A stretch of DNA of 64,000 nt from Elsinoe ampelina (GCA_010093995.1 ML992513.1:307203-371202), one strand, 5' to 3'; shown: positions 5,268 to 61,129, counted from the first letter of the stretch. Notes: a model not told the origin generated them from the sequence alone. Translations and numbers: made by a program.

Positions 5268-7160
5268 ATGTTGGCGTCGCGGCAGGCAGGAAGGCTAGCT
5301 AGGCCCTCGTGGTGTCCACGCACACAATGGCTCAATACGTGGGTATACATGACTTGCTACAGCATCCTTGACTGACAGTGACTCAGGAGAGCTTTCTCGC
5401 AGACGCCACTGCAGAGGAGTTCTGTAGACGACGAATTGCTCGGTGAAGCCGCCAGAGCAGTGCCCAAAGATGCCCTCAACAAGACGAGTCGATTCATCAC
5501 GAAGCCCAAGTCGCAGGGCGCTTCCCAGGCCATGCTCTACGCGACTGGCTTCACTGAAGAGGACATGGATAAGGCGCAGGTCGGCATCTCATCTGTCTGG
5601 TACAGCGGCAATCCCTGCAACATGCACCTTCTGGATTTAAACAACAGGGTGAACGAGGGTGTCAAAAGAGCTGGTCTTAAGGGCATGCAATTCAACACAA
5701 TCGGAGTCAGTGATGGTATTTCCATGGGCACAAAGGGCATGCGGTACTCATTACAATCACGAGACTTGATCGCAGACTCGATAGAGACTGTCATGAGCGG
5801 CCAATGGTACGACGCCAACATCTCGATCCCAGGCTGCGACAAGAACATGCCTGGTGTGATCATGGCCATGGGGAGAGTGAACAGACCATCTCTCATGGTG
5901 TACGGAGGCACAACAGCAGGAGGATGTGGCAAGCTACCGTCAAACTCGAAGCTCGACATTGTATCAGCTTTCCAAGCATACGGGTCGCATATCACCGGTC
6001 AGATCGATGAGAACGAGCGATTCGACATCATCCGCAACTCCATCCCAGGCTGCGGTGCATGCGGCGGCATGTACACGGCCAACACCATGGCCTCTGTAAT
6101 CGAAATCATGGGCATGTCACTCCCCGGCTCCTCCTCCAATCCAGCCCAATCCAAAGCCAAACAACTCGAGTGCATCGCCGCCGGCGCCGCCATCAAGAAC
6201 CTCCTCAAAGAAGACATCCGCCCACGCGACATCATCACCCGCACCGCCCTCGAAAACGCCATGATCCTCGTCAACATCACCGGCGGCTCCACCAACGCCG
6301 TGCTCCACCTCATCGCCATCGCCCACAGCGTCGGCATCACCCTCACCCCATCCGACTTCCAATCCGTCTCCGACCGCACCCCCTTCCTCGCCGACCTCAA
6401 GCCGTCAGGGAAATACGTCTTCGAAGACCTCTACAACATCGGCGGCACCCCTGCCCTCCTCAAATTCCTCCTCGCAGAAGGCGTCATCGACGGCTCCGGC
6501 ATGACCGTCACCGGCCGCACATTGGCCCAAAACCTGGAATCCGCCCCCTCCTTCCCCGCCGATCAAGACATCATCCGACCCTTCTCCAACCCCATCAAAC
6601 CCGTCGGCCACATCCAGATCCTCCACGGCTCGCTCGCGCCGGGCGGCTCCGTCGGCAAAATCACCGGCAAAGAAGGCACCGTGTTCACAGGCAAAGCCCG
6701 CGTTTTCGACGCCGAGGACCTCTTCATCTCCGCCCTCGAACGGGGGGAGATCAAGCAGGGGGGGAAAACCGTCGTCATCATTCGCTATGAAGGTCCCAAG
6801 GGCGGCCCGGGTATGCCGGAGATGCTCAAGCCTTCGTCGGCCATCATGGGTGCGGGGCTGGGGAATGACGTCGCGCTCATCACGGACGGACGGTTCAGTG
6901 GTGGCTCGCATGGTTTCTTGATTGGACATGTGGTGCCGGAGGCGCAGGAGGGTGGGCCCATTGCGTTGGTGCAGGATGGGGATACGGTGACGATTGATGC
7001 GGAGAAGAGGGTGATTGAGTCTGATGTGAGTGAGGGGGAGATGGAGGAGAGGAGGAAAGCGTGGACGGCGCCGAAGTTGAAGTACGAGAGGGGGACGTTG
7101 AAGAAGTATGCCAAGTTGGTGAAGGATGCTAGTAGTGGGTGTATCACGGACGGGGACTAG
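5268..7160 (+). CDS. ILV3: Dihydroxy-acid dehydratase, mitochondrial
   Basis: Arg-rich presequence exon [13 protein letters not shown]..., intron ~5339-5387, then [46 protein letters not shown] and [12 protein letters not shown]. Confidence 0.97.
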
Positions 7161-7432
7161 GGGTACTCGTCCACGGATATCAGTCGAACTGGGGAAGGTT
7201 TCAAAAAAGTGGTGTATTATGCAAGTGTATCAAACGTCAAAGTACTCCAAAGTCAATTTCACAAAACAAAACAGCAAGTCAAAACTTTTACCGTCTCCCT
7301 TCCATCACCTCTGCGTCTTTCCATGTTCCCAATCTCTACTTCCCCCCAACTCTCCCCCGGCCCTCCCACCACCTCCTTCCCACCCCATTCCACCCCTCCC
7401 CCCTCCCTCCCCCTTTCCCCTGCTCCGATAAG

Positions 7433-7600
7433 CTAAACCCCCCCACTCCCCTGACTCTCCACATCCTCCCTCCTCTTCACCCTGCGTCTCGTCTTGTGCA
7501 CAATCTCCCTATCCAACGCCCTGCACCATACCGCCCAGAAAACCAGCAGACCCAGGATGAAGACCAGTAGGACGAGGATGATGACGTGGTTGCGTTGCAT
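7433..7600 (-). CDS. Putative small single-pass membrane protein (55 aa)
   Basis: MQRNHVIILVLLVFILGLLVFWAVWC is a hydrophobic helix followed by a basic tail (KTRRRVKRR). No family recognised. Confidence 0.45.
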   Translation of the reverse strand: MQRNHVIILVLLVFILGLLVFWAVWCRALDREIVHKTRRRVKRREDVESQGSGGV

Positions 7601-8061
7601 TGCGGTGCGGAAGAGGAGGGGTCTGGCCTTTGGCTTTGGTCGCGTGTTGGACGGGGGTGTTGGCAGCGAGAGGACCGGGCGAGCGGGGAAGGGGGGAGGG
7701 GCGGGTTGTGGTTGTTGGACAGAGGAGGTCCCAGGTATGGGGTGTTGGTCGAGGAGGGTTGAGATTGTGAGGCGTGGGCCGCGAGGGTTGGGATTCCGAA
7801 GGTGGAGGGCTTGGAGGGGAGGGTATTGTTGCATTTAGTGGCGAAGATTGGGATAGGTGATCGTAGATGTTGGAGTCGGTCCGGCTTGGAGTCGATGATG
7901 GAGAGGTTCTGGTGGCGTTCTCGATGATCTGGGACACAGGGGTCGGGGAAGGAAAGGGGAGTATGTATATCATGTTGACCGTGAAGGACACACCTGATGA
8001 GACAATAACAAATACTTGAATCCAATATGTCGGTGACCAAGTAATAGTGAAAAGTGGTTGG

Positions 8062-13609: not shown

Positions 13610-14326
13610 ATGTCGATCTGGGACTCTATCACTGGGCGCAAGACCCAATCAAGCCCAGCTCCATCAGATGATCTCCACGACTCAGCTCCAACCACCGTCA
13701 TCCAAAATCCATACAGCACACAAGAGGCGCCGAATGTATCGTCCTTCCTGAACAGCTCAGATGCCTTTGATCCATCTTCGTTACATCCTCTCGCCGGCTT
13801 GAACCAAGACACACTCGACTACCTCCAGCTTGATGACTCTGTACTGACCGATTTGCCGGGAGCGAGATCTGCCCTACCATCGAGAGGCTGGTCGGACGAT
13901 TTATGTTATGGAACCGGTGTCACCTATCTCACAGGCCTGACGGTTGGAGGAGCCTGGGGACTTGCCGAAGGACTCAACAGACTGCCACCGTCTTCTCCAC
14001 CAAAGCTCCGGCTCAACTCTGCTCTCAACGCGATCACTCGGCGAGGACCCTTCTTGGGCAACTCTGCAGGCGTTTTAGCTATGGTATACAACGGTTTCAA
14101 CTCCACAATAGGCTACTACAGGGGGAAGCACGACTCTATGAACAGCATCACCGCTGGAGCGCTGAGTGGAGCGCTGTTCAAGAGCACGAAGGGCCCGAGA
14201 CAAATGATGATCTCGAGTGGACTTGTAGCCACCGCAGCAGGAGCATGGGCAGTGAGTATACCGCTTTCCTATCAGGCGATTTGAATATGCTGATCTTTCC
14301 AGTTCACACGCAAGCTCCTTTTTTGA
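13610..14326 (+). CDS. TIM23: Mitochondrial inner membrane translocase subunit Tim23
   Basis: MSIWDSITGRK...LHPLAGL...LPSRGWSDDLCYGTG...LNAITRRGPFLGNSAG. Intron 14252-14302; last exon FTRKLLF*. Confidence 0.96.
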
Positions 14327-16617: not shown

Positions 16618-17230
16618 AGGCTCAAGCCTCAAAAAGGTGCAGGCATGTGGAAATATTGATCGACCGAGAGATATTCGCATTGTGGAGGAGGCTACTAGGA
16701 AGTGGTCCGCGGGCGTAATTTGCATGCCTGTCGTGGTCTCAGGAGTGGCACTTCTACCGATCTGGTTGTATACCATTTTCTTACTTTGATACACCACATC
16801 CCTCCCAGGATCGTAGATGGGAACAGCACTTTCTTAATAGTAATCACTTGACGCATGCCCTTCTCTGCCTTTTCTGAAATTCGTCCCGGTTGTTCTTGAC
16901 GTGGTGTGAAGTGTCCGATCGCCATCTTTCCAGCTTGACATGTGCTTGGTCAAAACTTCACAAACCTCACCTCAACCCCAGCCCCCCTGACGACACTAAT
17001 ACACGACAATAGGACTCATACGACCTAAGCCACCGCTATGACTTCTTCGTGCAGAGTATATGGGTCAAGGTGTTTTCCTCTCTTCCCCTTTCCTTTCCTC
17101 CTCCTTCCTCTCTCTCTTTCCTGCGCAGCAAGACCTGCAGTAATCCCTCACACCACAACCAGCTATCATATCCTCAAGACGCTCCTCCTCATCGCTACGC
17201 AATCCCGACGTCCTTCTCAAAGCGTACAAG

Positions 17231-18292
17231 ATGCCTCTCATCACCAACCCCCAACAGCTTAGTCTGTCCGACATTGTCATCTCCCAAATCACCCACCCAG
17301 CCGACCGTCAAAGCATCAAGACCCTCGTCCGCCTCACCTGTCTCAGCCAAGCAGACATCTCCGAACTGCTCCTCCGCACTATGCTCCTCATGCAAGAAAC
17401 CAACCAGCTCACCAACTTCCCCTCCACCTTCCCAGACACGATGGCCAAAGACATGTTCAACACCCTCGCCATCGCCACCCCCTTCGACCCAAGCACGACC
17501 GGCACCGCATCCCTTCCCACTCCCAACATCAAACCCGACCCAACCTTCGACTTCAACCCCATCCCCATCAAATCCGACCCGACCACACCAACCTTCGATC
17601 CAGACTTCCCCTTCCCCTCCACAACCGTCAACAACACCAGCATCAAGCAAGAAGACGCCACGTCCCCGCTCACCAACCCCTCCACCCTCCCAACCATCAA
17701 CCCTTCGTCCCATCAGGAAAACATCACAAACCTCTCCCTCCTCCTCTCCTCTTCCCCCCACCTCGTCGCGAGGGGGGAGTTCTTCCTCGCCCTCCTCGGC
17801 TCCAAGCTGGGCGTCGGTCCTCGTCCGGCTCCCTTGTCCGGGTTGCGAGGGGAGGGGTTGGGGGATATGTTCGCTGAGGAGGAGGTGGTGGTGGGGCAGC
17901 TCCGGGGGGTCGTGCAGGGGTTGGGGNNNNNNNNNNNNNNNNNNNNNNNNNNNNNNNNNNNNNNNNNNNNNNNNNNNNNNNNNNNNNNNNNNNNNNNNNN
18001 NNNNNNNNNNNNNNNNNNNNNNNNNNNNNNNNAAGGGGAGGGGTGGGATGGGGGGATGGCAGGGGGTAACGGGCTGGGCCTGGCGGGGGCTCACGGGGTG
18101 GAGACGGGGATGGGCATGGGTGGTTGGGGCGGGCTGGATCCCATGGGTGGGCCAGCGGTGGGGTGGGGGGCGGGGATGAGATACGGGTTGGGAGAGGGAT
18201 GGATGTGTGCGCCTGACGCATCAAGTGAGCAGGTATGGGGTGGTGGAGAGGGGGGTATGGCGAGGATCACCTTTGGGGCAGCGCAGTATTAG
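17231..18292 (+). CDS. Hypothetical protein spanning an assembly gap
   Basis: Protein-like N-terminus MPLITNPQQLSLSDIVISQ... followed by P/T/D-rich and Gly/Met-rich parts. The N-run at 17927-18032 makes the frame uncertain. Confidence 0.45.
   Translation: MPLITNPQQLSLSDIVISQITHPADRQSIKTLVRLTCLSQADISELLLRTMLLMQETNQLTNFPSTFPDTMAKDMFNTLAIATPFDPSTTGTASLPTPNIKPDPTFDFNPIPIKSDPTTPTFDPDFPFPSTTVNNTSIKQEDATSPLTNPSTLPTINPSSHQENITNLSLLLSSSPHLVARGEFFLALLGSKLGVGPRPAPLSGLRGEGLGDMFAEEEVVVGQLRGVVQGLGXXXXXXXXXXXXXXXXXXXXXXXXXXXXXXXXXXXXGEGWDGGMAGGNGLGLAGAHGVETGMGMGGWGGLDPMGGPAVGWGAGMRYGLGEGWMCAPDASSEQVWGGGEGGMARITFGAAQY
17927..18032. other. Assembly gap (N run) inside a G-run-rich tract
   Basis: Run of N flanked by poly-G-rich sequence. 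Confidence 0.99.
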
Positions 18293-18310
18293 GCGGAGGG
18301 ACTTATGAAA

Positions 18311-21087
18311 TTACGAATCTAGATCGCCTCTCATTTCTGACATTAGCGCCTTCAACCTTTGCGTGCTCATTCGTTCGAAGCGGTCGACTTTCATCGTGAA
18401 TGTGCCTCGTCCTTTGGTCAGACTTCGCAGGTGCTTGAGGTAGCCGACCATTTCCTTTAGAGGCACGCGGGCGATGATTTGTCGCATGAGACCTGCGCCT
18501 TCGACGCCTTCGATGCCAGATGCACCACCGAATGGGTCGGGTGGAGCGTAGATTCGTGCTGCATCGATGACTGGTCGGTCTTCTCCTTCGGTGGTGGTAT
18601 GGGCAGACTCTGCATCGGCATCGAGTGATACGATATGCCCGCCGCGAGCAGAGGAGATGTCGTGGACGACAGCGCCGAGTGATGGCTCATCCACTGAGAT
18701 GGTGGCGAACATGACTGGCTCCATGAGTGTCGGTGATGTGGAGGCTTGTGCTGCAGACTTCAATGCCTTTGTGGTGGCGAGACGTGCGGCTGCAGACAGA
18801 GCTGAAGTGGTCGTGTTGGAGAAAAGATGAGAGGCGACATCGAAAGTGAGATGTACTGCCGTCGAATGCAGCGGGTATGAGAACGAGGGGCCACGGGATA
18901 GGGCAGCTGAGACACCAGCTTGTAGAGATGAGCGTAGAGCTGTGATGGATATAGAATCGGGCAGTGAGGGACCATCGTCTTCAATTGAAGACCCATCAGA
19001 TGTCAGCCCAGGTGTAGATATTGTTAGGACATTCTCGTCGGCGAGATCGATTGACCAAGCAGTTGCAGGGATATCGGCATCTTCTCTTGGACCAATACTG
19101 GCAGAACATCCAGCTTTAGCTGCCTTCCCAGCGATGTCTCGGTCGAAGATGCTTTCCTCCATGCCAGACGCCGTGGTAATTGCCTCACGATAGCCTATAC
19201 GAATGCTTCCCATGCGTGCTTTGGCTTTGAAATCGTTGATCAGTCTGTCTCTAGCGATTTCAAGATGCAATTCACCCATCCCAGATAGATGAGTTTGGCC
19301 ACTGTCAGGATCTTGTGAGACATTGAGACTTGGGTCTTCTCGCAGAAGCAGAGCGAGTTGCTCATGTAGATTTCTCTCCTCGGCCAAGCTGTTCGGCTCT
19401 ACACTGGTGAAGAAAACTGGTGGTGGCACAGCGATTGGCCGCAATTGAAGACTGTCCAACGGTGCTGGCGGGCCATTCTTGGGGTTTGAGCCTGTGTAAG
19501 AAATGAGGGTATCTCCAGTCCGAGCAAATTTTAGGCCAGGTATGACACCGATCTGTCCAGCTTGAATGGAGTCTTGATCCACGGCGTCGTTGGCGTACAT
19601 GCGAAGCAGTCTCTGAGCTCGTTCTGTGGATCCGAGGCTGGTGTTGAACAGCTGCGCGTTCCTGCCGATTGTGCCAGAGTAGACTCGGACATACACCAGG
19701 ACGCCTCTTTTTGAATCGTTGACGACTTTGAAGGCCAAAGCGCATGTCTCGAGTTTCGCCAGGCTGAGTGAAGGCTTTCCCTGAAGTGCTTTGCCTTTAT
19801 TTGTTTTAGTCTGCTCGGTCTGGGCAAGATTGGTCTTCCCGTCAAGTAGAGCGTGCAAGCCTGTCTGTATGCCTCCAAGCCTCGCTTCAGGATCCGGACG
19901 CTGCTCCGGCGCAGGTAGCATGTCTACTACAGCATCTAGTAGAGATTGGACACCGATGTTGCGGAAGCTGGCACCAGCGAGTAGAGGTGCCACCAGCTGG
20001 GAGCTTTGAGAAGTGAGCTTTCTCAGACTCCAGACAATGTCTACTTCAGCAATCGCCAAATGGTCTTCGTCGCATTCCAGGAATTTCTCTACCATGTCAT
20101 CGTCATGCTCGCTGAGCAGCTCCACCAATGCGATTCTTGCTTTGCGAATCTCATGCGCAAATTCAGCATGCTGAGCATCCAAGCGTGAGAGATCATAGAC
20201 CTCCATGGATTTTCCATCGCCGCCTTCGGGGTACAAGAGGCCTCGTAGTCCAAGGACATCTCCAACACCTTGCAGTCTGCCATCTGCATCTCGCCACCAG
20301 GGGATTTGGCAGACAGCAGGCCATACACCAAGTCGAGTACCGACCTCTCGAACTGTCCTCGCAAATGCCGCCCCATCTCTATCAAGCTTGTTGACAAAGA
20401 CTAGACGCGGGATCTGATAATGACTCGCTTGCTTCCACACCTGCTCAGTCTGAGCTTCCACGCCTGCTACACCGTCCAAGATGCAGACTGCTCCGTCCAG
20501 AATTCGTAGTGATCGAAGCACTTCGAACGTGAAGTCGGCATGTCCCGGAGTATCGATCAGGTTGATATTGTGAGGCTGAGTAGATAATCGCGCCGTCTTT
20601 GATGCTGCATTCTCGGCGCTGCTTGTGTCCGCCGGCGGCCATGAGAAGGTCACTGCTGCGGACTGAATGGTGATTCCTCGCGCTCTCTCAGCAGGCAAAA
20701 AGTCCGTCACCGTTGAGCCATCGTCCACATCTGTGAGAATAAGTCAGATCTTCCGTCTATCGTTTGCATGCATGTTTTCTGGTTTCCAAGGACGAGAGGC
20801 GAAAGTAAATGATGAGACCCACCTCCAAGTCTTCTAGTAAAGCCACTGTAGTAGAGCATACGCTCTGTCGTAGTTGTTTTACCCTACCATACTCAGCACT
20901 TGATACTTGCCTGGCAAAAGCTTGAACTCACGGCATCGATGTGAGCAATGATCCCGATGTTTCGGGTCTTGCTTGGAAGTGTGGATGCATGTCTACGACC
21001 TACGTAGTGACCAGGGAGATGCCTACGTAACACAGATCCTGATGTTGGGATAGACGACTGCAGTCGGGCAGTCCATCGTATGATCAT
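18311..21087 (-). CDS. MEF2: Mitochondrial ribosome-releasing factor 2 (EF-G2)
   Basis: Presequence [10 protein letters not shown]..., [57 protein letters not shown] and [11 protein letters not shown]. Three short 5' introns. Confidence 0.95.
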
Positions 21088-21407: not shown

Positions 21408-23282
21408 ATGGACTACTCCAGCTTACCACACGACCCGGAGCATCCAGAAGGTAGCTCACCATGGGCGGTATCACCCAAGCAGAGCAGAGATTTCGGGTCG
21501 AGACCTGACCTGTCTGGGTCGGCCAATCCTCAATCACCTTTCGGTCCCAATTCCGCTGAGGCATCAAACTACTCGGAACGTCCTTCGACAAGCGATTCTA
21601 CAGCAGCAATAAGATCGGAGAATGGAGATGGCCCACAATCGCCCTACATCCGCGACTCGCCTGAACAATCTCAGAATATCTCGCAGCAAGGACAACAGCA
21701 GCAATATCAGCAGCAAGGTGGTGACCAGCAACGGCCGCAGCAGGCAGCACGATACCACCCTCGACAACCTCAGAAGCCGCAGCCACAGTACAAGCTACAA
21801 TGCAAGATTACAGCGCTAGAGCGGACAGGCAAGAAGGACCCGATATTGAGATTCGACGCCTATGTAAGCTTTGTCGTGTGCCTGCTCTGGACCTGATCTG
21901 ACTGTCTCTAGACCAATCTGCCCAAGTTCCGCACTACTCAATTCAGAGACATTCGGAGGACGCATCATGAATTCCAGAAGTTTGCCGAACATCTCATCGC
22001 GAGCAATCCAGAGGCAATGGTTCCAGCAATTCCTCCACCAGTGACAGCGGCAGGTGCCGGAACGGACGAGGATGAAGTAAGAGTCAAGACGCTCATGCAG
22101 AGATGGTTGAACGTGGTCTGCAGCAATGATATTCTGATTCGAGACGAAGAGATGGTCTTTTTCATCGAGAGCGACTTTGGATACAGCCCAGTAGTACGGA
22201 GGAAGCAGCCTGCGACGGGTGCTCGAAGGAAGTACATCAAGCAATTTGCACCGCCTCCAGATGATACGCCGGAGCTACTCGAGGCTCGGCCTATCGTAAA
22301 AGCTTTCTACCTTGGTGCCATGGACGCAGGACAGCGACTGGAAAAGGTGGTCAAAGCCAGGAGAGGTATGTCACCTCTATCTTCCCATACCCATCTATAC
22401 TGACCCCCGCCTTCAGCCCTCGGTCTCGCAGAGTCCAGCCTTGGCCAATCCCTCCAACAACTGACCACCACCGAAGGCCATCCCGGCCTCGGCAACGCCT
22501 ACCGCAAGCTCTCTCGCACCATCCAAACCGTAGGCGACTTCCACTCCGCCCAAGGCACCGCCGAAGCCACCACCCTCGGCGACCCCCTCACCTACCACAG
22601 CAGCGACGCCAGCATCGTCAAAGAAACCCTCACCAACCGACACATCCTCCTCCGCGACCTCATAGCCGCTCAACAACACACCCACTCGCGCGAATCCGCC
22701 GCCAACCGCCTCAAATCCTCCTCGAGCGTCAAACGCGACAAAGTCGACGAAGCCATCACCCTCCTCGAAGAAGCGCGCAATCACGAGCAATACCTCGCGG
22801 GCAAAACCCGCGCCGTGACCGCCAACCTCCTCCAGGAAAAACGGCGCTGGTTCGACCGCACCTCGGCCGACATGCGCGTCGCCATCCGCGAGTACGTCCT
22901 CCGCCAAATCGAAGCCGAGCGACGCACCCTCGCCAATCTCGAGCTGGTGCGACCCGACGTGCGCAACGTCGACGCCTCGGGCGGTCTCAGCCGGCTGGGG
23001 CGGGAGAATTTCACCGTGCGCCGGGCGTTGGGGAGCAGTCAGGGGCCGAAAGGGGATGCGTGGTCCGGTGTGCCGAGGAGGCCGGACGGGGTGGCGAGGA
23101 GCATGTCGGGCAGTTTTCTCGGGGAGGAAGGGGACGAAGGGGATGGGGAGGGGGGAGGACAGGCGGGGGCGAGGAAGAGGGCGGCGAGTGGGGCGGGGAG
23201 TTTGCGGAGGTTGGAGGAGGATGATGAGGATAGGGTTGATGCGAGGAATGCGGCGAGTCGGTTGGCGACGACGACTTTTTAG
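21408..23282 (+). CDS. VPS17: Retromer sorting nexin (PX-BAR) Vps17
   Basis: MDYSSL...KITALERTGKKDPILRFD, TNLPKFRTTQFRDIRRTH, FFIESDFGYSP, QFAPPPDDTPEL, ASGGLSRLGRE and C-terminal RVDARNAASRLA. Introns ~21864-21911 and ~22366-22416. Confidence 0.95.
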
Positions 23283-23636
23283 TGGAGGTAGTCTGTCGGT
23301 TGGGGGGCGGGGGTGAGGTGAGTGGTAGGGAGGCAAGGGAGGTGTATATGTTGTGTTGTGGGGGGTAGATATAGCTCCCGAGAGGAAGCTGGGGATTGTC
23401 ATGACTACTGAATCGAATAAAGACAGTTTCCTCACAGGCACATTGAGCGGTACAGCAAAAACGATCTATATTTTTGTTGTGTTCCCCGGTGCTGGTCCCG
23501 GTCCTTCCCAGCCTCCCCACTTACTCACCACCTTCTCTAGTCCATGCCTGATTACATGCCTTCTCCCCTTTCCCTTTTCCTTTCCCCTTCCCCTTCCCTC
23601 TCCCCCTCCCCTCGCCCCCTCCTCCCTATCGTCCGA

Positions 23637-25654
<2,018 letters not shown>

Positions 25655-38946: not shown

Positions 38947-39398
38947 GGCATATCTCGGTGGAGAAGATCAGGGACGCTCTCGAAGAGGGAAAATGGACGA
39001 GGTTCGGTGGTCGAAGTTGATATGATTCTCACGCTTCCTTGATATCGATATTTGAGGTGATATGTAATTTGAGGGCGACTGGGTCGCTGGCAGGAGATGG
39101 ACTTCTCCAGCGACCATGTCAAGGGCTTGATAGTGATAATCTAATGTAAATCTGCCCACTGTTATGTACCCCACGTGATGTTTGACGTTGATTCGTATAT
39201 TGCGGTATTACGCGCAGGTCTGTACAGAGCATGTCCGTACCCGACCTTTCCGTCCGTCGAGTTCGAGCTTTGTCCTCGCATGGCCGGCATTGTTGTCCAA
39301 GCTGTGGCTTTGATGCCATTGACGAAGACTCGCTGTAAAATTCCAACTCGCCGTCAACACCGATACAACTCCGATATGCTCTCTCAATCAATTCTCGT

Positions 39399-43465: not shown

Positions 43466-44010
43466 GGCTGTTGTGCTATGTTCACAAACGAGATGGAGTT
43501 GATCTTGACATGTCCCGCATTTGATCGTGACTCGAAGCCAAATTTTTGCCGAAAGTCAATGATGTGATGATTGCCCGTTTGTTCAGGGTCTGTCGGCAAA
43601 AGCTCCCGTTGACAAGCCCCATTTCCTCGCCTCGCTTTCAACCACAGAAACGAGGAATGAGCACCAATCTTAGGTCGTACCATATAGCGATCAAGGCACA
43701 GGTCTTCTTCTGATCTCTCTGGCTCTGCATGGTCGGTCATGTCCCTTCCGTCACCGATGCATGTTGCACAAAACAGGTCCCTCGTCGGGCCGGCATACAG
43801 CATTCCCGACGTCAGCTAGTGTATGTATCTCCACCTTTGTCAAGTACTAGTGCACGACAGGAGGAGAGTGCAGGCCAGCTCGATCCCTGATCAATAGCTG
43901 CCTGTCAGCACACAAAACTTCTTTGATTGCTACACGATCACCGCTCCTGAGAAGGAATCATCCTCGTCCTCCACGAAGCAGCACATCCATCCAAACACCC
44001 ATCAATCATC

Positions 44011-44811: not shown

Positions 44812-44904
44812 GTTACTTACATGACCATCGTGTTATGTGAACGTCCCTATTATACATTGCTTGACAAAGCCAACGCTATCCACCCATGCATTATCCTTCT
44901 CTTA

Positions 44905-46176
44905 TCAAAATTCGTCCCGGAAGAAGCTACCCTTGCTCATACTACTCTTCTGATCTTCCTCACTCCTCGCTCCGACCGATTGCTTCTTGACGAATTGCAA
45001 TTCGATCGGCGCCCTACTGACCGTGACCTCTGTCTTCATCTTCATCGCTCCATCCTCCAGGTCCACCAGCTCCTCTGTACTCGAGCTTCTCTCATCGAAG
45101 CCCTCACTCAACCCCTTCCTTCCCCGTCCTCTGCTCCCACTTCTCCTCACCGCACCACCCTGAATCGTCGTCGTAGTCCCATACTCCTCCGGCTTCCAGT
45201 AGAAAGTATCCAAAGCCCTCATATCCTCCTTCAACGGCTCCGAACCAAAGATCAACGCCCTCCTCGTCAAACTATACAACAACACATCCAACCACCCGTT
45301 ACTCGTAATCATGGCCGCCGCCACGCAAAGTTGGACATAACTCGGCACATTATCCGCCATACTACTAATCCTCATGGCGGCCAACGGACACGTACAAACC
45401 ACATAGATAATCGGATAAGGAATAATCGCCCTGGCCGCCGCCTTGGCCCTACCCGCCGACCCGGGGGCCGAGTAATAATTACTCCTCAACCGTTGCTGCA
45501 AAATCCAGAACAGCGCCGAGTACAGCAACACGGTGCCGAACTCGGCCACCAAGATCCAGAAGTAATGCAACCACAACCTCTCGTGCTGGTACGAGCCATT
45601 GACCCAACACCAGGCGCCGGCCCGGACGTAGATATCGGCGGGGTGCAACGCGATGCCGATCACCGCGCACGCGTACACGAAGACGTGGCACGACGCTATG
45701 CACCCCAAGAACAAGCCGTACCCGGGCTGGTACGCGAGCACAATGTCCGCGAAGGTGTGCACCGCGATGGCGATGGTGAAGACCCCGCTCGCTAGATCCC
45801 CGACCGACACGAAGAACCCCTGCGCCCAACACATGGACGTGTCGACTTGGATCCCATCGTGGCGCAACCACTGGACGTTGGACCAGAAAGCGATGCTCTG
45901 TTGGATGTCCGCCAGGAGCAAGTTGAGAATGAGGACGAGGAACTGGTTCCGGTGGAGTTTGTGGCGGCGGTCGAGGATGAGGCGGTAGGTGAGGCGGAGG
46001 AAGAGGGCGATGGAGAGGAAGAAGGAGAGGAAGGCGAAGATGGAGACGGCGGTGAGGCCGCGGAAGAGGGAGGGTGGGAGCGGGGAGAGGGAGCCTTTGC
46101 CCAGGACGGAGAGGGATTCGGGGTCGGAGGGGCCACGGGGGAAGAGGGTGGTGGTGCTGAGGGAGATGGGGAGCAT
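44905..46176 (-). CDS. Seven-TM G protein-coupled receptor (Git3/cAMP-receptor-like)
   Basis: LILNLLLADIQQS, CWAQGFF, AIAVHTF, AGAWCWV, YPIIYVVCTCPLA and SNGWLDVLLYSLTR; seven hydrophobic segments. Confidence 0.88.
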   Translation of the reverse strand: MLPISLSTTTLFPRGPSDPESLSVLGKGSLSPLPPSLFRGLTAVSIFAFLSFFLSIALFLRLTYRLILDRRHKLHRNQFLVLILNLLLADIQQSIAFWSNVQWLRHDGIQVDTSMCWAQGFFVSVGDLASGVFTIAIAVHTFADIVLAYQPGYGLFLGCIASCHVFVYACAVIGIALHPADIYVRAGAWCWVNGSYQHERLWLHYFWILVAEFGTVLLYSALFWILQQRLRSNYYSAPGSAGRAKAAARAIIPYPIIYVVCTCPLAAMRISSMADNVPSYVQLCVAAAMITSNGWLDVLLYSLTRRALIFGSEPLKEDMRALDTFYWKPEEYGTTTTIQGGAVRRSGSRGRGRKGLSEGFDERSSSTEELVDLEDGAMKMKTEVTVSRAPIELQFVKKQSVGARSEEDQKSSMSKGSFFRDEF

Positions 46177-49100
46177 GGTTTTTCGTTCGGGGGACCAGGG
46201 ATCCTCGTTGGAGCCGATGGTGTGAGCAGTGCTGGGGAGCTTGCTGGGGGAGGGATCGTGGGGGTGCGAGATCCCGTGGCGAGGTTGAAGAGGCAGAAGG
46301 TGAAAGTCCCAGTGCTGAAGGTGAGGATATGTATAGACCGAGGTCTGGAGGGGGGGATATCCGGGAGATAAGAAGATGATTAAGCGTCCAAAGTGGATAG
46401 GGACAGTTCGGGAGTAGACTAAAGAAGAGAAAAGGGCCTAAGGACAGGGGTAAATGGCTTGCCCAGGTCCATGGACTGTGATACTAGACGATCCACTGTC
46501 CGGTGAAGAGACGGTCGAAGTTGGGACGGGCGTCAGCGAACGAGGATACTTACAGCGGAATGTACTTGACTAGTATCAGGACTGGAGCCAAGATGTACCA
46601 CCAAAATGTCACTTTTGGTACGACTCGTTCCGACCAGTCGTGGCCGTGAGGGATGCCGTGAGCCGTGGGGCACGGTCTGCCCTCGAGGCGTTTAGGTTTG
46701 ATGTTGGACCATAGCGGTCGAAAGAGACAAGAGGAGGTTGATGGGAAAGTGACCAATAGAGGACCCTGATTCGACGCCAACAAAGGAGCGTAACCATCCG
46801 GGAAAAGTGAGCGGCCGTGTAGACCGAGCCGGCGCTTGCCACGTGAAGGTGGTTGCGTCTGACTCGCATGGTCATGATCGTGGCTGGCGGTGCCTGCGTC
46901 AAGATGCCGAGTCTGTGCTGAAGTCGCGTGGCACGGTCGGAGTATTTGCTGTGAGCTTAGTGGAGACAAGCGTCTAGCTGAGAAGCTACCTGCATGCGAG
47001 GCTGTGGTGGATACTGTACTCTGTCGCGTAATCAGCTGAACACATGCTGTGCTGTGGATGAAGGATGATGCGCTGGAGAGATCCTCGGATGACCGTCGGG
47101 AAAGTTTGGTGATCATTTTGCTGGAGTTTGGGACCCAAACTCTCGGTCATCAATCGCCACTACAGTACCAACAGATTTGGACATCAGACATCGGAGAGGG
47201 TATCCGACAGGGCGATGAATGGAACTCGAGGACAAGCTCGGCTCCAAAAAAGTGGTCCGTCAGATTGGCGCGGACAAAACAATCGGTCCGTGTCGTGAGT
47301 CCAGCTCAGCTACGGCACGGTCAAAGGCAAAGCAGGGATTGATGATTTGACCATGCCAGGACAGGCTACAATGGCACGTTGCTGGGCTCGATATACTTGC
47401 AGCTTGCAGGACAAGTGCGACGTGGGTAGCAACGTGCCAATGCTAGCCCCAAGTAGCCCAGAGGATCGGTCGCCAGGTGTAGATTGTATACTTTGTCGTA
47501 GCGTTCTAAGAATGGCGTGCCTGATATCCGCTCGTCCCGTCACTCGCTCATTCTTTCGACGTGTTACGTACGGACATGGATTCCGTCTGGAGTGCTATCC
47601 GTTTCCGGAGGATCCGTTATGGCAAGCACCTTCTGCATCTGAACGTAGAGTGCATAGACAGAAACACCCAGTGCAAAAAGGTGGTGGAAGCGAGCGGAAG
47701 AGGCGCCACCACCAGGTTGATCGGAAATTTGGACCGAGGAGAGGGATGCAGGAACGAATCAGTGAGACAAGAACGCCATCAACCATTCAACCGAGATATA
47801 ACCCCTCGCAAGGAGTCAAGGACTCTGTGGTGACCGGCGAGACATCGGATGGCGCATTGCTTGATACTGTAGTGAAAATTCCGCCCTCACGGTGTGTCCG
47901 GACGCCACAAGTCCAAAGACTGAAGCTGAAGGGACCAGAGACAAAGATAGACGTGCATCTGCCTGTTCGATCCACTGGTCGATTTTGTTGGAAACCGGTT
48001 GACGATTGGCAGGGCGGGTTGCCTTGAGCTGGTTCTGCCTGATCGCCCTGGCAGATGAACAATCATTCCAAAGTACTGGTACCCTTGTACATCATGTATC
48101 ACGAGCGACATGTATGACACTACTGCTTCGTTTGAACAAGCATCGTCATCTGCTTCGAGTAAACTCAAGCTTCTCTTTGACAGCGACGATCTCGTCTCCT
48201 CGCAAGGATTCCCCGGCCGCCACAGTATTCGTCACTGCCATGTCCTTTCTCAGCCTTGCCGGGTGAACAACTCGAACAAGCGAAGTGGCGTTATTCCAGA
48301 CGCAAAAGGGTGCGACGCGAGCTCAATCCGGCATATGATGCGCATGGCAGACAGGCACACTCGACAATTTCCATCGACATTCCCGTTGACGCTCATGTGC
48401 AGTAGTCAGACGCCTCCAACATGCCAAGTGTGAAGATCAACACCGCTGCCTCTTCGATATCACGTCACGCTTTCGTCTTCGATGTCGATGCTGATCTGCA
48501 TGGCATCGGGCATTCTTGTCGTCAAACGCTCGCTTCATGCCGTGGAAGAGCTGCGTTGATCGACTCTGTGGCCGGCGCTTGTTCTACGTCCGCTGGCGAA
48601 CATGAATGATTGCGCAGCCATCGAATCACCCCCTTCACACATACCACAAGCAAGTTGAGACATCTCTAGAGCGCTTTACAGTGTGTCCCTACAACAGTCT
48701 CGACCGGTCTGCTCCAGACATGGCTGACAGGCCTTAATGGATTTAAGGTTCTGCTGTATATTCACTGCTAACCTCACATACGTTTCCCACGCAACAGTCG
48801 TCATTCCTGCGTTCTTTCAGCCCCATCAAATCACTATCGATATAGGTCATCTTTACGACTGCTCCGCGGGTATAATCACTCCATCCAAAGGCATCCTTTT
48901 ACAAGACCGTATGCCGTGCCTCGTAAGGAAGCGTTCACCCGACCGCCGTTATGAACCCTCATTCGGACAAGCATATATTTACCAACGGTAATAAAAAGGT
49001 TAGCCGTTGACCCAATGGAGCCTCACAACCAAGCCAGTAACCAGACCGTTGAACATATCTGGGGCCATGCTATGCTTACTGCTCCTCGGGAGCCCCGACA

Positions 49101-51200: not shown

Positions 51201-53127
51201 ATGGCGGGTGACAAACCATGGCCGGAAGCACCGGTCGGCAACAAGGACCATACCCAGGCAGCTGTGGTCATTGTAGGAGCCGGCATATCTGGTAGGCCTT
51301 ATCGTGAATCATTTGAGGCCTGATATCTGATACTCGCAGGCATGTGTACTGCCATCGACTTGATCAGACGGAACAATTGTCGCAACTTTATCATCGTTGA
51401 GAAGAGCAGTGGTGTCGGCGGTACATTCCCTTCCAACTCCACAACAGCCCTGGTAGTAACACTTGACGTAGGTACATGGTATGACAATCGCTATCCTGGG
51501 TGCTGCTGCGATGTCTACTCTATGCTGTACTCTTTCTCGTTCGAGCAAAAGTCAGACTGGACGCGGGAGTATCCTGGGCAAGAAGAGATCTTAGAGTACC
51601 TCACAGGCATTGCACAAAAGTACAATCTGTATCAGCACATTCGCTTCAGTACATTCGTCGAAGAAGCGAGGTGGGATGATCAAGCTCTGAAGTGGAGGAC
51701 AAGAGTATCAACGGTGGGAGGGAGCAAAGAAGCAGAAGCCAGTCAAGGCTACGAGATCACAAGCGACTTCCTAGTCAGCGCTGTGGGGCAACTGAATGTG
51801 CCAAAGTGGCCAGATGCGATACCCGGACTGCATGACTTCAAGGGTAAGATGATGCACTCGGCACGATGGGACTGGAGCTATGATCTGAATAACAAGAAGA
51901 TTGCTATCATTGGCAATGGTCTGTCTGCCAACACCTCCTACAACTTTCCATCTACTCACTACCTCAGGTGCCACCGCCGTCCAGATTATTCCAGAGCTAC
52001 AAAAGGTCGCATCGAATGTCACCGTCTTCCAGAGGACTCCCAACTGGGTCGTCCCCCGCCAGGACGCCGAAGTACCCACCTACACCCGCACCCTCATGAA
52101 ATACATCCCTCCCCTCCGCGCCCGCAAACGCTCCCTCCAAATGGACTTTCGCGAATCCACCTACGACGGCCTGGTCAACCCAGACTCCGACATCTCCTCC
52201 GAATTCCGCCGCCTCTGCCTCTCCATGATCGACGCTGCCTTCCCCAACGACCCCGAAATGCGCAAGACGCTCACGCCCGACTACTCCCCCGGATGCAAAC
52301 GCATCCTGATAAGCGACGACTACTACCCGGCCCTCGCGCAACCCAACGTCCACCTCGAAACCCGTCCCATCTCCCGCATCACCCCGAGCGGCATCTGCGT
52401 CCCCTCCTCCTCCCCCTCCCACCCCTCCTCCTCGTCCGAAGAGGAAACCCCCTTCGACCTCATCATCCTCGCCACCGGCTTCCAGACCCTCTCCTTCCTC
52501 CACCCCATCAAAATCACCGGCGCCTCCTCCCTCCCCCTCTCCATCCCCTGGTCCACCGGCGCGACAGCCCTGTACGGCATCCTCGCCCCCTCGTGCCCCA
52601 ACTTCGGCATGCTCTACGGGCCCAACTCCAACCTCGGCCACAACAGCATCATCCTCATGATCGAGGCGCAGAGCGCGTACATCAGCGCGCTCGTCGCCCC
52701 TGTGCTGGCCGCGCGTCGGCGGGGGGAGTCTCTGGCTCTCGTCCCCGGGCAGCAGAGGTTGGAGGAGTTTAATGCGTGGTTGCAGGAGAGGTTGAGCGGG
52801 ACGAGTTTCGCCGACGAGAGGTGTGGGAGTTGGTATAAGAATGAGGCGGGGAGGATTGTGAATAATTGGTGTGGCACCGTGGTGGAGTATCAGAAGTTGG
52901 TGGAGGAGGTGAGGTGGGGGGATTTTGAGGTTTTGGGGGATGGCAAGGGGGAGGTGGAGCGGGAGGGGAGGAGGTGGGTGGGGAGGGTGAGGGAGGAGAG
53001 TCTGGTGGGGAATGCGGTGTGGGTTGGCATGGGGGTGTTGGGGATGGTGGGGATGGTGGCGGGGGGGATGGCGCTGGTGGGGAGTCTGGGTGGGGGAAGA
53101 GGGAGGGGGAGGTGGAGGGTGAGATGA
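51201..53127 (+). CDS. Flavin-containing (Baeyer-Villiger-type) monooxygenase
   Basis: VVIVGAGISG, GGTWYDNRYPGCCCD, AVGQL, fingerprint FKGKMMHSARWD, IAIIGNG/ATAVQ, FQRTPNW and ILATGF. Introns ~51292-51339, ~51421-51471 and ~51919-51968. Confidence 0.93.
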
Positions 53128-53267
53128 GAGGGGGAACGAAGAGAGCGGTGCTGTCGACGAATTACGTTACGTGTCATGTCTGCTTGTATCTATATCCCTT
53201 ACGCCTTGAATTGAACCCTGTCCAACCCTTCATGATGCAGCGTGGCTCGTTACCTCCTCCGTACCCC

Positions 53268-54332
53268 TCATAGACCCATAGTATAGTCGTGTTCAATTCC
53301 TGGCGTCACGCTTGCCATGAACTTCAGGAACACCACCAGGTACTGATCCACTCTGATGGCGCTCTCGTCCTCGCCTTGCTCGCCCTCGTCGAGCACTTCC
53401 CACTCATCTCCTTCCTGCTTCTTTCCATCCTTGATATCGAGCCCCTTGGTGTCTTCCACAAGCCCTTCCAGTCCGTGATCGCCCTTGACGTCTTGACCTT
53501 TTCTCAGCTTCTGCTTTCTGACCCTGAGCGCGGCATCCGCACGGTCAAGCAATGTCTTCATGACGCTGGCGTGGCGGCAGGGGTGAACAGAGGCAGTCTT
53601 GACGATCGGAGAGATGAAGGGGAAGTCTTCGAGAGTGACGGTCTTGTCTTTGTAGTCGCCTACAATATCCTCCATCATTGACGTGGGAGGCAGGGGGACA
53701 GGCGGTGATCCAGGCGAGGGTGATGAGTAGCCTGATAGGTACAATCTCGGAGTGCGATAATATGGCGTGTAAGTGATGTACAGTGTGTATGTCCTCAGCG
53801 GTCTAGAAGTGTCAGCTGCTCTTCTACCTCGACGTTTCGTATATACTTACGTGTCGCCTGAAGTATCCCTGATTATAGCCTCATCATCACTCTCGTCTTC
53901 CATGTCTGGGATCTCGTCTTCCTCTTCCACTCTCGCCTCGACGACGCCTCCTTCACCCAATGTCCTGATATCTCCGACCTTTTCTCCTTCACTTCTCCCA
54001 GTGTCCCCACCTGTCGTTGTCCAGCCCTCCTCTCCACCTTCACCTTCCACGAGTCCTTCCCCACCGGTTCCGGCAAAGTCCTCCCCTAGTCGTCGCCGAC
54101 ACGGCACACCACGTGTGACAAGATACTGCTTGCCAGGAGGAAAGTATGCGACGCGCTTATCGGGTGAAGAAGCGTCTGCCCAGGACCAGGACGGGAACTT
54201 GTAGACGAGAAAGTCTCCGGCGAGGAGGAACTCTTCGGGCATGATCTGACCTGTGTTCCGGAAGGTGGAAGATGTGGTGAGGGGCGCGTAGGTGTCGCGG
54301 AGACGATCGAGAGTGGAGTGGATAAAGTTCAT
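53268..54332 (-). CDS. ATG3: Autophagy E2-like enzyme Atg3
   Basis: [62 protein letters not shown], catalytic ASVHPCRHA and [17 protein letters not shown]; one intron ~53804-53850. Confidence 0.97.
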
Positions 54333-54955
54333 GGTGCTCGTGTCGTAGGACTGTTGTCAAAGAGTGTGAGGAGTGAGAGTGTCGGTCACTCAGATGGACT
54401 GATGTGGTTCTCGTCTGATATGCCTGAGTGCTGGGTCGAGGTGTTGCTGCCTGTTGGATATTGTGTGATATGTCGTGAACGACTTTGGTGTTACTTTATC
54501 CTCCCGAAGAACCTGGCGCCTTATTGGATATTATGACCGTAGAACAAAGCCTGTTGTAGAAGACGAGGAAAGCAAACATGCGTCACGGTTGAATGCGGGC
54601 GGTGACCTCTGGCCTCGGCTTGGCGCGGGGCATCACGGGGAGCGTCGGCCTCATGCGTGATGTGGTCATTTGCGGCTCTGTTTGACTTGTCGTCCTCATA
54701 CCAACGACAAGAGTCAGATATCTGGCTGCTTGACTGAGGAATTTGAGTGATGCCGTGGATGTAGCGAATCAACACCGGGCGCAGGTACAAGTGAGTGAAG
54801 CTCAACGCAGGCCAACAGCACCGCGGACGTCATTGATGCGCTTGTACCACATCCCTCTAGTCATCCTATTTGCCTGGGGTTTGCACCGCTTGTCTACATC
54901 CAAATCGATCACGTACGATCTTGACCGCGTCCTACTTGAGAAGATCTCACGTTCC

Positions 54956-59881: not shown

Positions 59882-59991
59882 TCTACTTCTGTCCATAGCG
59901 TGGCGTTAAGTGGCAACCAATCCCAAATTCCATCACATCTAATCCCCTCGTCTCTCCCGTCATACCTCGTTTCTCTCCGCTCAATCATCCT

Positions 59992-60927
59992 CTAAGCCCC
60001 CTTCCCCTCGGCCTCCACCTCCCTCACAACCCTCCCCACCACCTCCCCCAAATCCTCATCCTCCAACCCCAACAACCCCATCGCAAACTCCTCTCGTCGA
60101 GTCCAATCCCCCTCCATAACCCCCAAAGCAAACACCAACTCCTCCACCGCAGCCTTACTCCCCCGATCCCTCCTCCCCTCCTCCCTCCTCACAAAACCCT
60201 CCACCCCCTCCCTCTCCACCTCCCACCTCCCCCCCGTCACCCCCTCCAAAGCCCTCAAAACCTCCCACTGCGTCACGCAAAAACTCTGCACCATCAACGT
60301 CCTCCCCCTCACCTCCGCCCTCCCCTCGGCCCCCATCTCCAAAACCCGCACCGTCGCCTCCGCCACCCTCGCGAGCGTAGACAAACTCATCCTCTGCTCC
60401 CCGTCGCCCAACACCAACGCCTTCCTCCCCCTGACGTCAAAGTGCATGAAATCCGTCTTCAGCGCCCAGTCGAAGAAATGCCCGTTCACCAGCGCCGTCC
60501 AGGTGAATCCCGCGTGCTGTCCGGCCAAGTCGGTCAGGCGTTGGCGCACTGCCGATTTGCGCCCGAACAGCGGCACGAGTTTCTGCGAGAGTGGCGCGCC
60601 GCTGTCGACGCTGCCGAAGTCGGCGGGGATGTAGTGCTTCACGCCTGCGTGTGCCGCGGCGGTGGCGAGGTCGAGGTGGAAGTCTAGGGAGGTGAGGGGG
60701 ATGGCGATGATGACTGCGTCGTGGTTCTTGAGGAGAGGGGTTAGGGTGGTGACGGTGGGGGAGGAGGGGAGGGGGATGGGGTGCAGGTTGGGGTGGGAGG
60801 GGAGCGGGGAGGTGGAGGTGGGTCGGTGCAGGACTGTGACGCTGTGGTTGGAGGAGAGGAGGTGGGAGAGGATGGGGGCGCCGACGTTGCCGTTTGCGCC
60901 TAGGAGGGCGACTTTGAGGGTGGGCAT
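59992..60927 (-). CDS. NmrA-like/isoflavone-reductase-family NAD(P)-binding oxidoreductase
   Basis: VALLGANGNVG Rossmann motif, AGVKHYIPADFGS and WTALVNGHFFDW. Confidence 0.9.
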   Translation of the reverse strand: MPTLKVALLGANGNVGAPILSHLLSSNHSVTVLHRPTSTSPLPSHPNLHPIPLPSSPTVTTLTPLLKNHDAVIIAIPLTSLDFHLDLATAAAHAGVKHYIPADFGSVDSGAPLSQKLVPLFGRKSAVRQRLTDLAGQHAGFTWTALVNGHFFDWALKTDFMHFDVRGRKALVLGDGEQRMSLSTLARVAEATVRVLEMGAEGRAEVRGRTLMVQSFCVTQWEVLRALEGVTGGRWEVEREGVEGFVRREEGRRDRGSKAAVEELVFALGVMEGDWTRREEFAMGLLGLEDEDLGEVVGRVVREVEAEGKGA

Positions 60928-61129
60928 GGTTGGGGGGTTTCTTAGAGGTTGATGTGGGAAGAGGAGGGATGGGGGAAGTGGAAGGTTGGGATTTGATGTG
61001 CGGGGTGGATTTCGAAGGTTCGCGGTGTGGGTTCACGTTGGGGGCACGAATGAGGTGGCAATTTGAGCATGGAGTTGCAGGTTTGATCTCGCTCCATCTG
61101 AAGCATGATAGCGGGATGTATTGCATAGA

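Follow-up and report, generated by a model that had tools for sequence, protein, structure and literature searches.

Abrupt C-rich to G-rich composition domains at the 3' ends of convergent genes in the fungus Elsinoe ampelina

A 64-kb stretch of the genome of Elsinoe ampelina, a Dothideomycete (GCA_010093995.1, ML992513.1:307203-371202; hereafter the window, with positions counted from its first nucleotide), contains nine domains in which the + strand changes abruptly from C-rich to G-rich. All nine lie in the 55.8-kb gene-rich core of the window, in DNA with a GC content of about 52%. An initial annotation of the window, made from the sequence alone, had delineated nine such domains together with their switch points and attributed them to a local strand-asymmetric process that overrides codon usage; the nine-domain observation is confirmed here. 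The best explanation, to which we assign a probability of roughly 0.5, is that every domain corresponds to a transcription unit, or to the 3' end of one where introns are absent, in which one DNA strand is under pressure toward G, by a mechanism that, we infer, involves RNA:DNA hybrids.

In 400-nt windows, the GC skew swings from −0.76 to +0.39 at 60.0-61.2 kb, from −0.52 to +0.57 at 7.2-8.0 kb, and from −0.40/−0.29 to +0.73 at 52.0-53.2 kb (the +0.73 part being 52.8-53.2 kb), and the GC content of the domains is 0.59-0.70 compared with about 0.52 in the surroundings; the skew of individual blocks reaches ±0.84. Blind segmentation (150-nt window, |skew|>0.4) produced 23 segments, among which nine C-block/G-block pairs coincide with the nine spans of the initial annotation; among the remainder are a weaker pair (53885-54064 / 54257-54425) and three C blocks that stand alone (13637-13757, 36063-36199, and 61161-61339). 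When the switch points were placed by cumulative skew, eight agreed with the earlier estimates to within 40 nt, and for the ninth, both the new position (60500) and the earlier one (60640) fall inside a balanced centre of 239 nt. The skew is far beyond that of shuffled controls, against which the initial annotation had proposed to check it: 81 of the 300-nt windows in the core have |skew|>0.5, compared with 0 in each of 50 dinucleotide-preserving shuffles, where the largest |skew| is 0.32. By block lengths, the nine domains total about 10 kb, or about 18% of the core, and their arms are 0.13-0.75 kb long. Spliced RNA contigs assembled from independent runs (four in all; the contigs carry no information on strand, ends, or levels) match the domains with 0-5 differences, their cover of d7, d8, and d9 being little or none in parts in some runs; one contig (44277-46726) covers d7 with 0 differences. 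Because independent assemblies match almost without differences, the sequence of the domains is not an assembly artefact.

The domains, placed on a gene map that combines Pfam annotation of all long open reading frames (ORFs) with the spliced RNA contigs, are the following (block coordinates refer to the + strand; UTR, untranslated region):

5929-7227, + strand: d1, the 3' 1.1-1.3 kb of ILV3 (dihydroxy-acid dehydratase; ORF 5532-7160, stop 7160); C-arm 6165-6601, switch 6737, G-arm 6922-7168, plus about 70 nt of 3'UTR
7227-8007, − strand: d2, a small unit between the ILV3 stop and the Trm732 stop, with a 133-aa ORF (7436-7834); C 7272-7514, switch 7553, G 7612-8007
17020-18266, + strand: d3, an orphan ORF (17144-18292); C-arm 17020-17766, switch 17839, G-arm 17871-18266
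22370-23398, + strand: d4, the last exon (22404-23282, Vps5-like BAR part) and 3'UTR of a VPS17/VPS5-like sorting nexin gene; C-arm 22432-22724, switch 22978, G-arm 23058-23392
23398-24363, − strand: d5, the last exon (23640-24293, APS-kinase-like domain) and 3'UTR of MET3 (ATP sulfurylase); C 23502-23781, switch 23922, G 24234-24363
39363-40741, − strand: d6, a single-exon gene (39399-40964) with the Pfam domain Acyl_transf_3; C 39363-39763, switch 39933, G 40122-40741
44887-46421, − strand: d7, a whole GPCR-like gene (44905-46176) and its upstream leader; C 44887-45335, switch 45871, G 45931-46421
51967-53173, + strand: d8, the last exon of an FMO-like monooxygenase gene (stop 53127); C-arm 52063-52600, switch 52700, G-arm 52775-53152
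59912-61064, − strand: d9, a whole NmrA-like gene (coding sequence 59992-60927) including 5'UTR and 3'UTR; C 59912-60426, balanced centre 60427-60665 with switch 60500, G 60666-61064

Thus, d2, d3, d7, and d9 are whole short genes, as d6 nearly is (it spans the acyltransferase gene except for the first 75-100 codons or so); d4, d5, and d8 are terminal exons, and d1 begins in the middle of the ILV3 exon.

The nature of the pressure is apparent from synonymous sites. In a pool of codons from seven genes (1045 from C-arms, 890 from G-arms, and 4582 controls), the base composition of four-fold degenerate sites is A6 C84 G9 T2 (%) in the C-arms and A7 C12 G71 T10 in the G-arms, compared with A25 C31 G20 T24 in the controls. 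Two-fold codons ending in a purine carry A in 79% of cases in the C-arms, 39% in the controls, and 11% in the G-arms, and those ending in a pyrimidine carry T in 66% of cases in the G-arms, 41% in the controls, and 4% in the C-arms. Within synonymous families, the C-arms use CTC for Leu, CGC for Arg, and TCC for Ser, where the G-arms use TTG, AGG, and AGT, respectively. The encoded proteins follow: the C-arms are rich in Leu (14.3%), Ser (9.9%), Thr (8.1%), Pro (6.7%), and His (3.6%), and the G-arms in Gly (13.6%), Val (10.1%), Glu (9.9%), Arg (9.8%), and Trp (2.6%).

The same flip can be followed gene by gene. Third positions of ILV3 are normal in codons 1-150, carry C at 74-82% in codons 201-400, and carry G at 54-72% with about 10% C in codons 451-543; in the acyltransferase gene, they are 70-88% C in codons 101-300 and 56-72% G in codons 401-522; in d8, 68-86% C and then 68-84% G with 2-6% C; and in the NmrA gene, 80-82% C in codons 1-100 and 72-86% G with 0-2% C in codons 201-300. 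The C-arm of d3 has 62-72% C at third positions. The statement of the initial annotation that third positions change from C to G/T within one exon is thus borne out by the counts for ILV3 and the monooxygenase, and by the domains called in VPS17 and MET3; TRM732, MEF2, MET2, and GH55, which it had listed as lacking the bias, lack it by both third-position and amplitude data. Since the skew sits at third codon positions and in UTRs, amino-acid content is not its cause, and the presence of skew at four-fold and non-coding sites, for which the same annotation had suggested a genome-wide check, holds in the window.

At the junctions of the arms, G and C are both abundant, and the skew is close to zero. 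The pressure disfavours G in the upstream arm and C in the downstream arm, even where this lowers the GC content. GC-biased gene conversion, under which a weak-to-strong bias is expected in all site classes, was considered and rejected: two-fold codons move to A in the C-arms and to T in the G-arms. The whole pattern is captured by a one-strand rule, namely, that all bases change toward G, and C also toward T, on the antisense strand in the upstream part of a domain and on the sense strand in the downstream part. Over the last 0.4-0.7 kb of a domain (in d7, up to about 1 kb), the sense strand is driven, and over the preceding 0.5-1.3 kb, the antisense strand; on the driven strand, A>G is the most frequent change, followed by T>G, C>G, and C>T.

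Of the 27 G4 (G-quadruplex) motifs in the window, 25 are inside the arms, always on the G-rich strand. Given the complementary composition of the arms, it has to be considered whether the two arms of a domain are partners in one structure, that is, a fold-back element or a long RNA hairpin under selection, as the initial annotation had envisaged among other mechanisms. The predicted folding energy of domain RNAs is −0.40 to −0.49 kcal/mol per nt, compared with −0.31 for controls; in the predicted fold of d9, 279 of 401 pairs are arm-to-arm, and d9 and d8 in native form exceed in stability both variants whose codons were permuted inside each arm (z −5.3 and −3.1, respectively) and arm-wise shuffles. 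The excess is not significant for d2 (z −0.3) and d6 (z −1.6), however, and an 8 by 8 co-fold matrix, in which the G-arm belonging to a C-arm performs no better than a foreign G-arm (p=0.39), largely refutes this possibility; the pairing potential of the arms is therefore a generic consequence of composition. True inverted repeats were not found in the window, where the only such matches are 16-35 nt long, of low complexity, and 73-95% identical. A selected hairpin accordingly appears extremely improbable.

The domains are anchored to transcripts. UTRs are skewed along with the coding sequence, with an absolute skew of 0.35-0.80: on the + strand, the VPS17 3'UTR (23283-23392) has a skew of +0.72, the MET3 3'UTR (23502-23636) of −0.80, that is, G-rich in sense, and the NmrA 5'UTR and 3'UTR of +0.74 and −0.70, respectively. 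The domains end 80-140 nt past the coding sequence, so that both the spill into non-coding DNA and the end of the G-rich half near the 3' end of the gene, as originally described, are reproduced. In sense orientation, the polarity is C to G in 24 of the 26 genes of the window; because the reverse complement of C-then-G is again C-then-G, the strand symmetry of the pattern means that each gene runs from C to G in its own sense. The C-bias is at the 5' end in the single-exon genes of d2, d7, and d9; in ILV3, FMO, VPS17, and MET3, the C-arm starts approximately 0.6-1.1 kb downstream of the start codon, and the 5' part is little or not skewed.

This anchoring bears on replication origins, which the initial annotation had put forward as one cause of the flips. 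The flip has the same sign as at bacterial origins and, as in the GC and keto skews associated with replication in bacteria and some yeasts, G and T rise together on one strand. The scale differs, however, being 1 kb in the window versus tens of kilobases to megabases, and nine fixed bidirectional origins in 55 kb, 0.8-16 kb apart, would each have to act over only about 0.5 kb per side; moreover, the flips are inside coding exons, are bounded by transcript ends and introns, depend on the orientation of the neighbouring gene, and are absent from tandem genes. We give origins next to no chance of being the cause.

None of the eight RNA-confirmed introns is located inside a strong domain, and in three of the four partial domains the last intron is within about 100 nt of the domain start; d8 begins directly 3' of such an intron (51917-51967). 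Domains that are anchored at the 3' end and free of introns would be expected if complementary DNA (cDNA) of sense and antisense 3' ends was copied back into the genome by recombination, adding errors or edits and removing introns. Fungal introns are 5'-biased in general, though, and by our estimate only about two of the eight would be expected in the domains by chance (p about 0.1). The start of the ILV3 domain is not at an intron, the surroundings of the domains gave no sign of a retroelement, and we know of no reverse transcriptase or editing activity with a spectrum combining A>G, T>G, and C>G. Copy-back of cDNA thus seems very improbable.

The second regularity is the arrangement of neighbours. 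With a strong domain defined as a sense amplitude of 0.5 or more, a cut-off chosen post hoc, after the data had been seen, 9 of the 14 genes with a convergent 3' neighbour carry one, as opposed to 0 of the 12 tandem genes (Mann-Whitney p=0.04); amplitudes above 0.8 are found in 5 of the 14 and 0 of the 12, respectively (Fisher p=0.03). The nine strong cases span amplitudes of 0.50-1.30, and tandem genes mostly fall between +0.06 and +0.30, with one at −0.01. Stop-to-stop distances are 19-461 nt for all domain genes. An extreme gene faces a flat one in the four tightest convergent pairs (19-141 nt) and in a pair separated by 461 nt; both partners are skewed in the pairs separated by 273 and 355 nt. 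RNA contigs from three runs continue beyond the GH55 stop by about 245-305 nt and reach the 3' part of NmrA, and one contig spans DLH and the GPCR gene; such contigs are compatible with overlapping convergent transcription although, being unstranded, they do not prove a single transcript.

The same arrangement could be read as the product of selection that keeps the two-block composition either as a bidirectional transcription stop or insulator between packed convergent genes or for some property of the RNA. A polymerase arriving from either side would make first C-rich and then G-rich RNA and would pause or terminate via hybrids or G4 structures. The confinement of strong domains to convergent 3' ends and the pairing of one extreme with one flat partner at short distances fit this logic, as does the link of terminal G-skew to termination in human gene-dense regions (PMC3787257). 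A terminator should not need about 1 kb, however, and the skew grades alike into UTR and coding sequence. The history of the domains, examined for three genes, provides further evidence on this point.

The N-to-C composition gradient of the NmrA protein is strong in the window and in the closest Elsinoe congener (89% identity), intermediate in the next one (64%), and nearly flat in two more (55% and 53%). The acyltransferase gradient is +0.59 in the window and +0.54 and +0.34 in the congeners, in order, compared with +0.12 in Sphaceloma and +0.02 to +0.22 in outgroups. The strong state of both genes is therefore derived within this genus lineage. Proteins encoded in the window are 100% identical to those publicly listed for E. 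ampelina. Between the same species, ILV3 diverges far more slowly than NmrA and the acyltransferase: the ILV3 proteins of two congeners are 96% and 92% identical to the one encoded in the window, and with respect to one and the same congener, NmrA is 55% and ILV3 92% identical. In a separate observation, the Sordariales homologues of NmrA with the same gradient (P0126-P0132) are 50-54% identical to the window protein versus 53-55% for the two flat congeners, which suggests that shared skew inflates the similarity of distant homologues.

With the ancestral state approximated from positions at which the flat relatives are in agreement, we counted 32 of 81 replaced residues in the C-arm of NmrA, 7 of 38 in the centre, and 39 of 108 in the G-arm. 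The nucleotide changes deduced at first and second codon positions run, in the G-arm, A>G 19, C>G 6, and T>G 2 versus 9 from G to any other base and, in the C-arm, G>C 7, T>C 6, G>A 6, and A>C 5 versus 7 from C. The acyltransferase changed in the same directions as NmrA; its replaced residues number 3 of 43 in the 5' portion, which is unskewed, 23 of 150 in its C-arm, 7 of 22 in its centre, and 25 of 92 in its G-arm. In ILV3, there are 13 replacements among 180 residues outside the domain and, within it, 24 of 220 (C-arm) and 15 of 102 (G-arm); most of them are common to the congeners and hence uninformative on timing. The arms mostly evolve faster than the unskewed parts. Two other polarizations of NmrA were of little use, the one against 117 homologues yielding mostly multi-step changes and the one against the 89% congener alone too few single-step changes. 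Among isolates, 16 of the 20 differences listed over 20 kb fall in skew zones, with five within 35 nt (60508-60542) in the centre of d9 and ten within 140 nt (61265-61403) in a G-rich tail of the ABC-F gene (see below), as opposed to four in the rest of the 20 kb outside skew zones; in this comparison, the arms are partially covered, and single low-depth contigs can err.

For selection on a transcription stop, these results are difficult: the feature would have to rewrite 36-40% of the residues of an otherwise conserved protein (NmrA), in two genes, the domains are of recent date and are lacking from the same genes of near relatives, and the isolate differences cluster in the skew zones. We therefore regard selection as an unlikely alternative.

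Clustered differences (five in 35 nt) might alternatively come from error-prone patches at hotspots of meiotic or mitotic break repair, where either the synthesis itself or damage to the resected strand would be mutagenic; hotspots of meiotic breakage and repair were another proposal of the initial annotation. Resection and conversion tracts are of the order of 0.5 kb, as are the arms, and the GC content of the domains is raised. The polarity is wrong, however: with a break at the switch point, the + strand would be single on the left and, if the single strand gains G, the order would be G then C, opposite to that observed. Breaks at the domain edges, in turn, predict a G block followed by a C block around each edge, and in our reading of the profiles, most edges are one-sided. 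The move of two-fold codons toward A and T runs against GC-biased repair, and the domains follow exon and transcript limits. Recombination-associated mutagenesis is, in our view, quite unlikely.

Returning to pressure linked to transcription, we consider mutation of one strand in its general form to have somewhat better than even odds. A specific scheme can be outlined on the basis of known processes. The strand that gains G would be the one left unpaired in co-transcriptional RNA:DNA hybrids, with sense hybrids at the 3' end and antisense hybrids further upstream, the latter fed by read-through from the convergent neighbour or by antisense transcription starting from the 3' hybrid. Base loss and deamination would affect the unpaired strand, and bypass by Rev1 and Pol zeta, inserting C, would leave G on the damaged strand, so that on a strand that is repeatedly single, A, T, and C would turn into G, and some C into T. 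The added G would in turn favour hybrids and G4 DNA, making the process self-reinforcing. Such a feed-forward would explain the all-or-none look of the domains, the pairing of the arms, their boundaries at introns and transcript ends, and the accumulation of G4 motifs in them.

Several elements of this scheme have precedents in published reports: Rev1 and Pol zeta insert C opposite abasic sites, and in yeast, T>G changes on the non-transcribed strand are transcription-dependent and increase with R-loop accumulation (PMC6063437); terminal G-skew forms R-loops at closely spaced human genes (PMC3787257); and antisense transcription is promoted by R-loops (PMC6868509). The R-loop feed-forward form of the pressure is plausible, and we hold it only tentatively. 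In its fullest version, which we consider doubtful, self-reinforcing, strand-specific hypermutation would operate where sense and antisense transcription overlap at convergent 3' ends, ratcheting the affected genes, within one genus lineage and across about a fifth of the gene-rich DNA, to a G-free half followed by a C-free half and driving the proteins toward Pro/Thr/Ser/Leu/His and then Gly/Glu/Val/Arg/Trp regardless of function. Among the mechanisms listed in the initial annotation, a putative 3'-end R-loop/G4 process is the most plausible; its broader proposal of a local strand-asymmetric process that overrides codon usage is upheld by the four-fold, UTR, and 3'-end data, and its origins, break hotspots, and fold-back structures are not.

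The domains have counterparts elsewhere. In ILV3 loci from fungal metagenome contigs, with about 80% protein identity, the third-position switch occurs at the same codons in L063 (C 55-70%, then G 58% with C 8%) and in L065 (C 75-76%); L001 and L066 have a weaker switch, and L002 has none. Both L063 and L065 have a second domain on the downstream convergent gene, and a convergent gene likewise neighbours ILV3 in L001, where the ILV3 domain is weak. Several Sordariales NmrA-like homologues carry the same amino-acid gradient. Because the same switch or gradient is found in other fungi, the phenomenon is not private to this genome. The ILV3 domain is either maintained or recurrent, and its location at the same codons in L063 and L065 fits a maintained feature, as expected under selection.

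A number of observations weigh against a transcription-linked pressure acting at convergent 3' ends. Five of the 14 convergent genes are flat (MEF2, the ORF at 38348, DLH, ATG3, and GH55), the test of neighbour arrangement comprises 26 genes and a post hoc threshold, and L002 has a convergent neighbour 645 nt from an ILV3 without a domain, so that the neighbour test did not discriminate among these loci. The C-arm of ILV3 starts (at approximately 5929-6165) in mid-exon, without a visible landmark. The acyltransferase centre (7/22) has evolved as fast as the arms, and the rate in its C-arm (15%) is only about twice that of the unskewed 5' part. Sense A makes up 17-32% of the 3'UTR parts of the G-arms and is thus not depleted, unlike at four-fold sites. 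Both antisense transcripts and R-loops are putative here, the RNA contigs being unstranded, and selection on nucleotide composition would leave the same static pattern. In budding yeast, hybrid-prone regions do not have a GC-skew pattern (PMC4911931). The yeast system of Owiti et al. 2018 (PMC6063437) resembles the window in that C is inserted opposite lesions in the unpaired strand, giving N-to-G changes in the observed direction, but consists of reporter genes in repair mutants rather than composition shaped by evolution; it does not predict the C-arm, and the dominant change in the window is A>G, not T>G.

The closest known system is the skew described by McLean and Tirosh in 2011 (PMC3315797), who found fungal genes to be C-biased at 5' and G-biased at 3' ends, with four-fold sites and UTRs affected, amino-acid usage shifted, and the cause unknown; their data are species-wide averages, mainly metagene curves, with a flat AT skew. 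The genes of the window similarly run from C to G on either strand (24 of 26 positive), their four-fold sites and UTRs are skewed, amino-acid usage differs between the two ends, and the tandem genes resemble the fungal baseline. The differences are that the window has discrete, extreme blocks in a subset of genes, all with convergent neighbours; that in longer genes the blocks take the 3' end or terminal exon, rather than the start codon, as their reference point; that the AT component flips with the arm at silent sites; and that the window shows lineage-specific origin and faster protein evolution. The domains are an extreme, block-like, locus-specific form of this weak fungal 5'-C/3'-G skew. 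In a literature search that did not cover subscription journals, block-like extreme intragenic skew in filamentous fungi was not found.

In the human genes studied by Ginno et al. 2013 (PMC3787257), the coding strand is likewise G-rich at the 3' end next to a close neighbour, in G4- and hybrid-prone sequence. Enrichment of the human skew is mostly in tandem pairs, and the skewed sequence surrounds or follows the poly(A) site, whereas in the window it is much stronger, occupies coding exons of convergent genes, and is accompanied by an upstream C-arm, the propensity to form hybrids being judged here from sequence alone.

Two of the domains contain ORFs that lack a Pfam match. The 133-aa ORF of d2 is Pro-rich toward the N terminus, has a hydrophobic segment resembling a transmembrane span in its centre, and ends in a basic tail; it produced zero matches in a Pfam search. 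A similarly built ORF also follows ILV3 in L001, with weak local similarity to the d2 ORF (E 0.003); a tblastn search of L001, L002, L009, L063, and L065 with the d2 ORF gave 0 matches at E 1e-4 or better. The d3 ORF encodes about 350-380 aa, Pro/Thr/Ser-rich and then Gly-rich, also with zero matches in a Pfam search; its G-arm is interrupted by a run of N (17927-18032). A weaker G-skew of d3 runs past the stop (18314-18685) into the last 370 nt of the convergent MEF2, and because of this extension, the 3' end of MEF2 is C-biased in sense, opposite to the usual polarity.

Two further features of lesser strength complete the map:

53885-54425, − strand: a weak tenth domain, exon 1 of ATG3, ending about 35 nt before the intron 53802-53851
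61161-61339, − strand: a G-tail without a C-arm, the 3' end of an ABC-F ATPase gene, which has a tandem neighbour

In the last 77 codons of the ABC-F gene, third-position C is 0-6%, and the G-tail overlaps the hypervariable stretch 61265-61403.

Some side observations concern the reading of the arms and the surroundings of the domains. Long spurious ORFs are numerous on both strands of the arms and could mislead gene callers. RNA contigs of two runs fuse the G-arm of d7 (46051) with that of d9 (60850) via 8 extra letters; these are most likely chimeric assemblies caused by common low-complexity G-rich sequence. The gene-rich DNA is interrupted by AT-rich blocks at 1-1400 and 31300-37700 (GC 3-32% in 400-nt windows), which look like AT isochores of the repeat-induced point mutation type; the second block contains runs of N at 33016-33160 and 33845-34353, and the first is adjoined by a RecQ-like helicase ORF (2076-3302). 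Genes of sulfur assimilation are close together, with MET3 and a MET16-like PAPS reductase gene about 1.2 kb apart on the same strand (23637-27435) and a MET2-like acetyltransferase gene (41879-43555) 14 kb beyond them.

For the weak 5'-C/3'-G skew that runs through fungal genes, an accepted cause has been lacking since 2011, and the domains described here present the same polarity in a switch-like, extreme form. Their sharp limits, substitution signature, convergent context, and recent origin among the sequenced congeners make this open cause testable. In practical terms, such blocks distort codon-usage statistics, gene prediction, RNA assembly (through chimeric contigs), and homology searches, in which distant homologues sharing the gradient equalled or exceeded some true congeners in score, and they inflate apparent protein divergence, as in the contrast between NmrA and ILV3 with respect to the same congener (55% versus 92%). 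If the pressure is mutational, a non-adaptive nucleotide bias would be rewriting a third of the residues of functional proteins.

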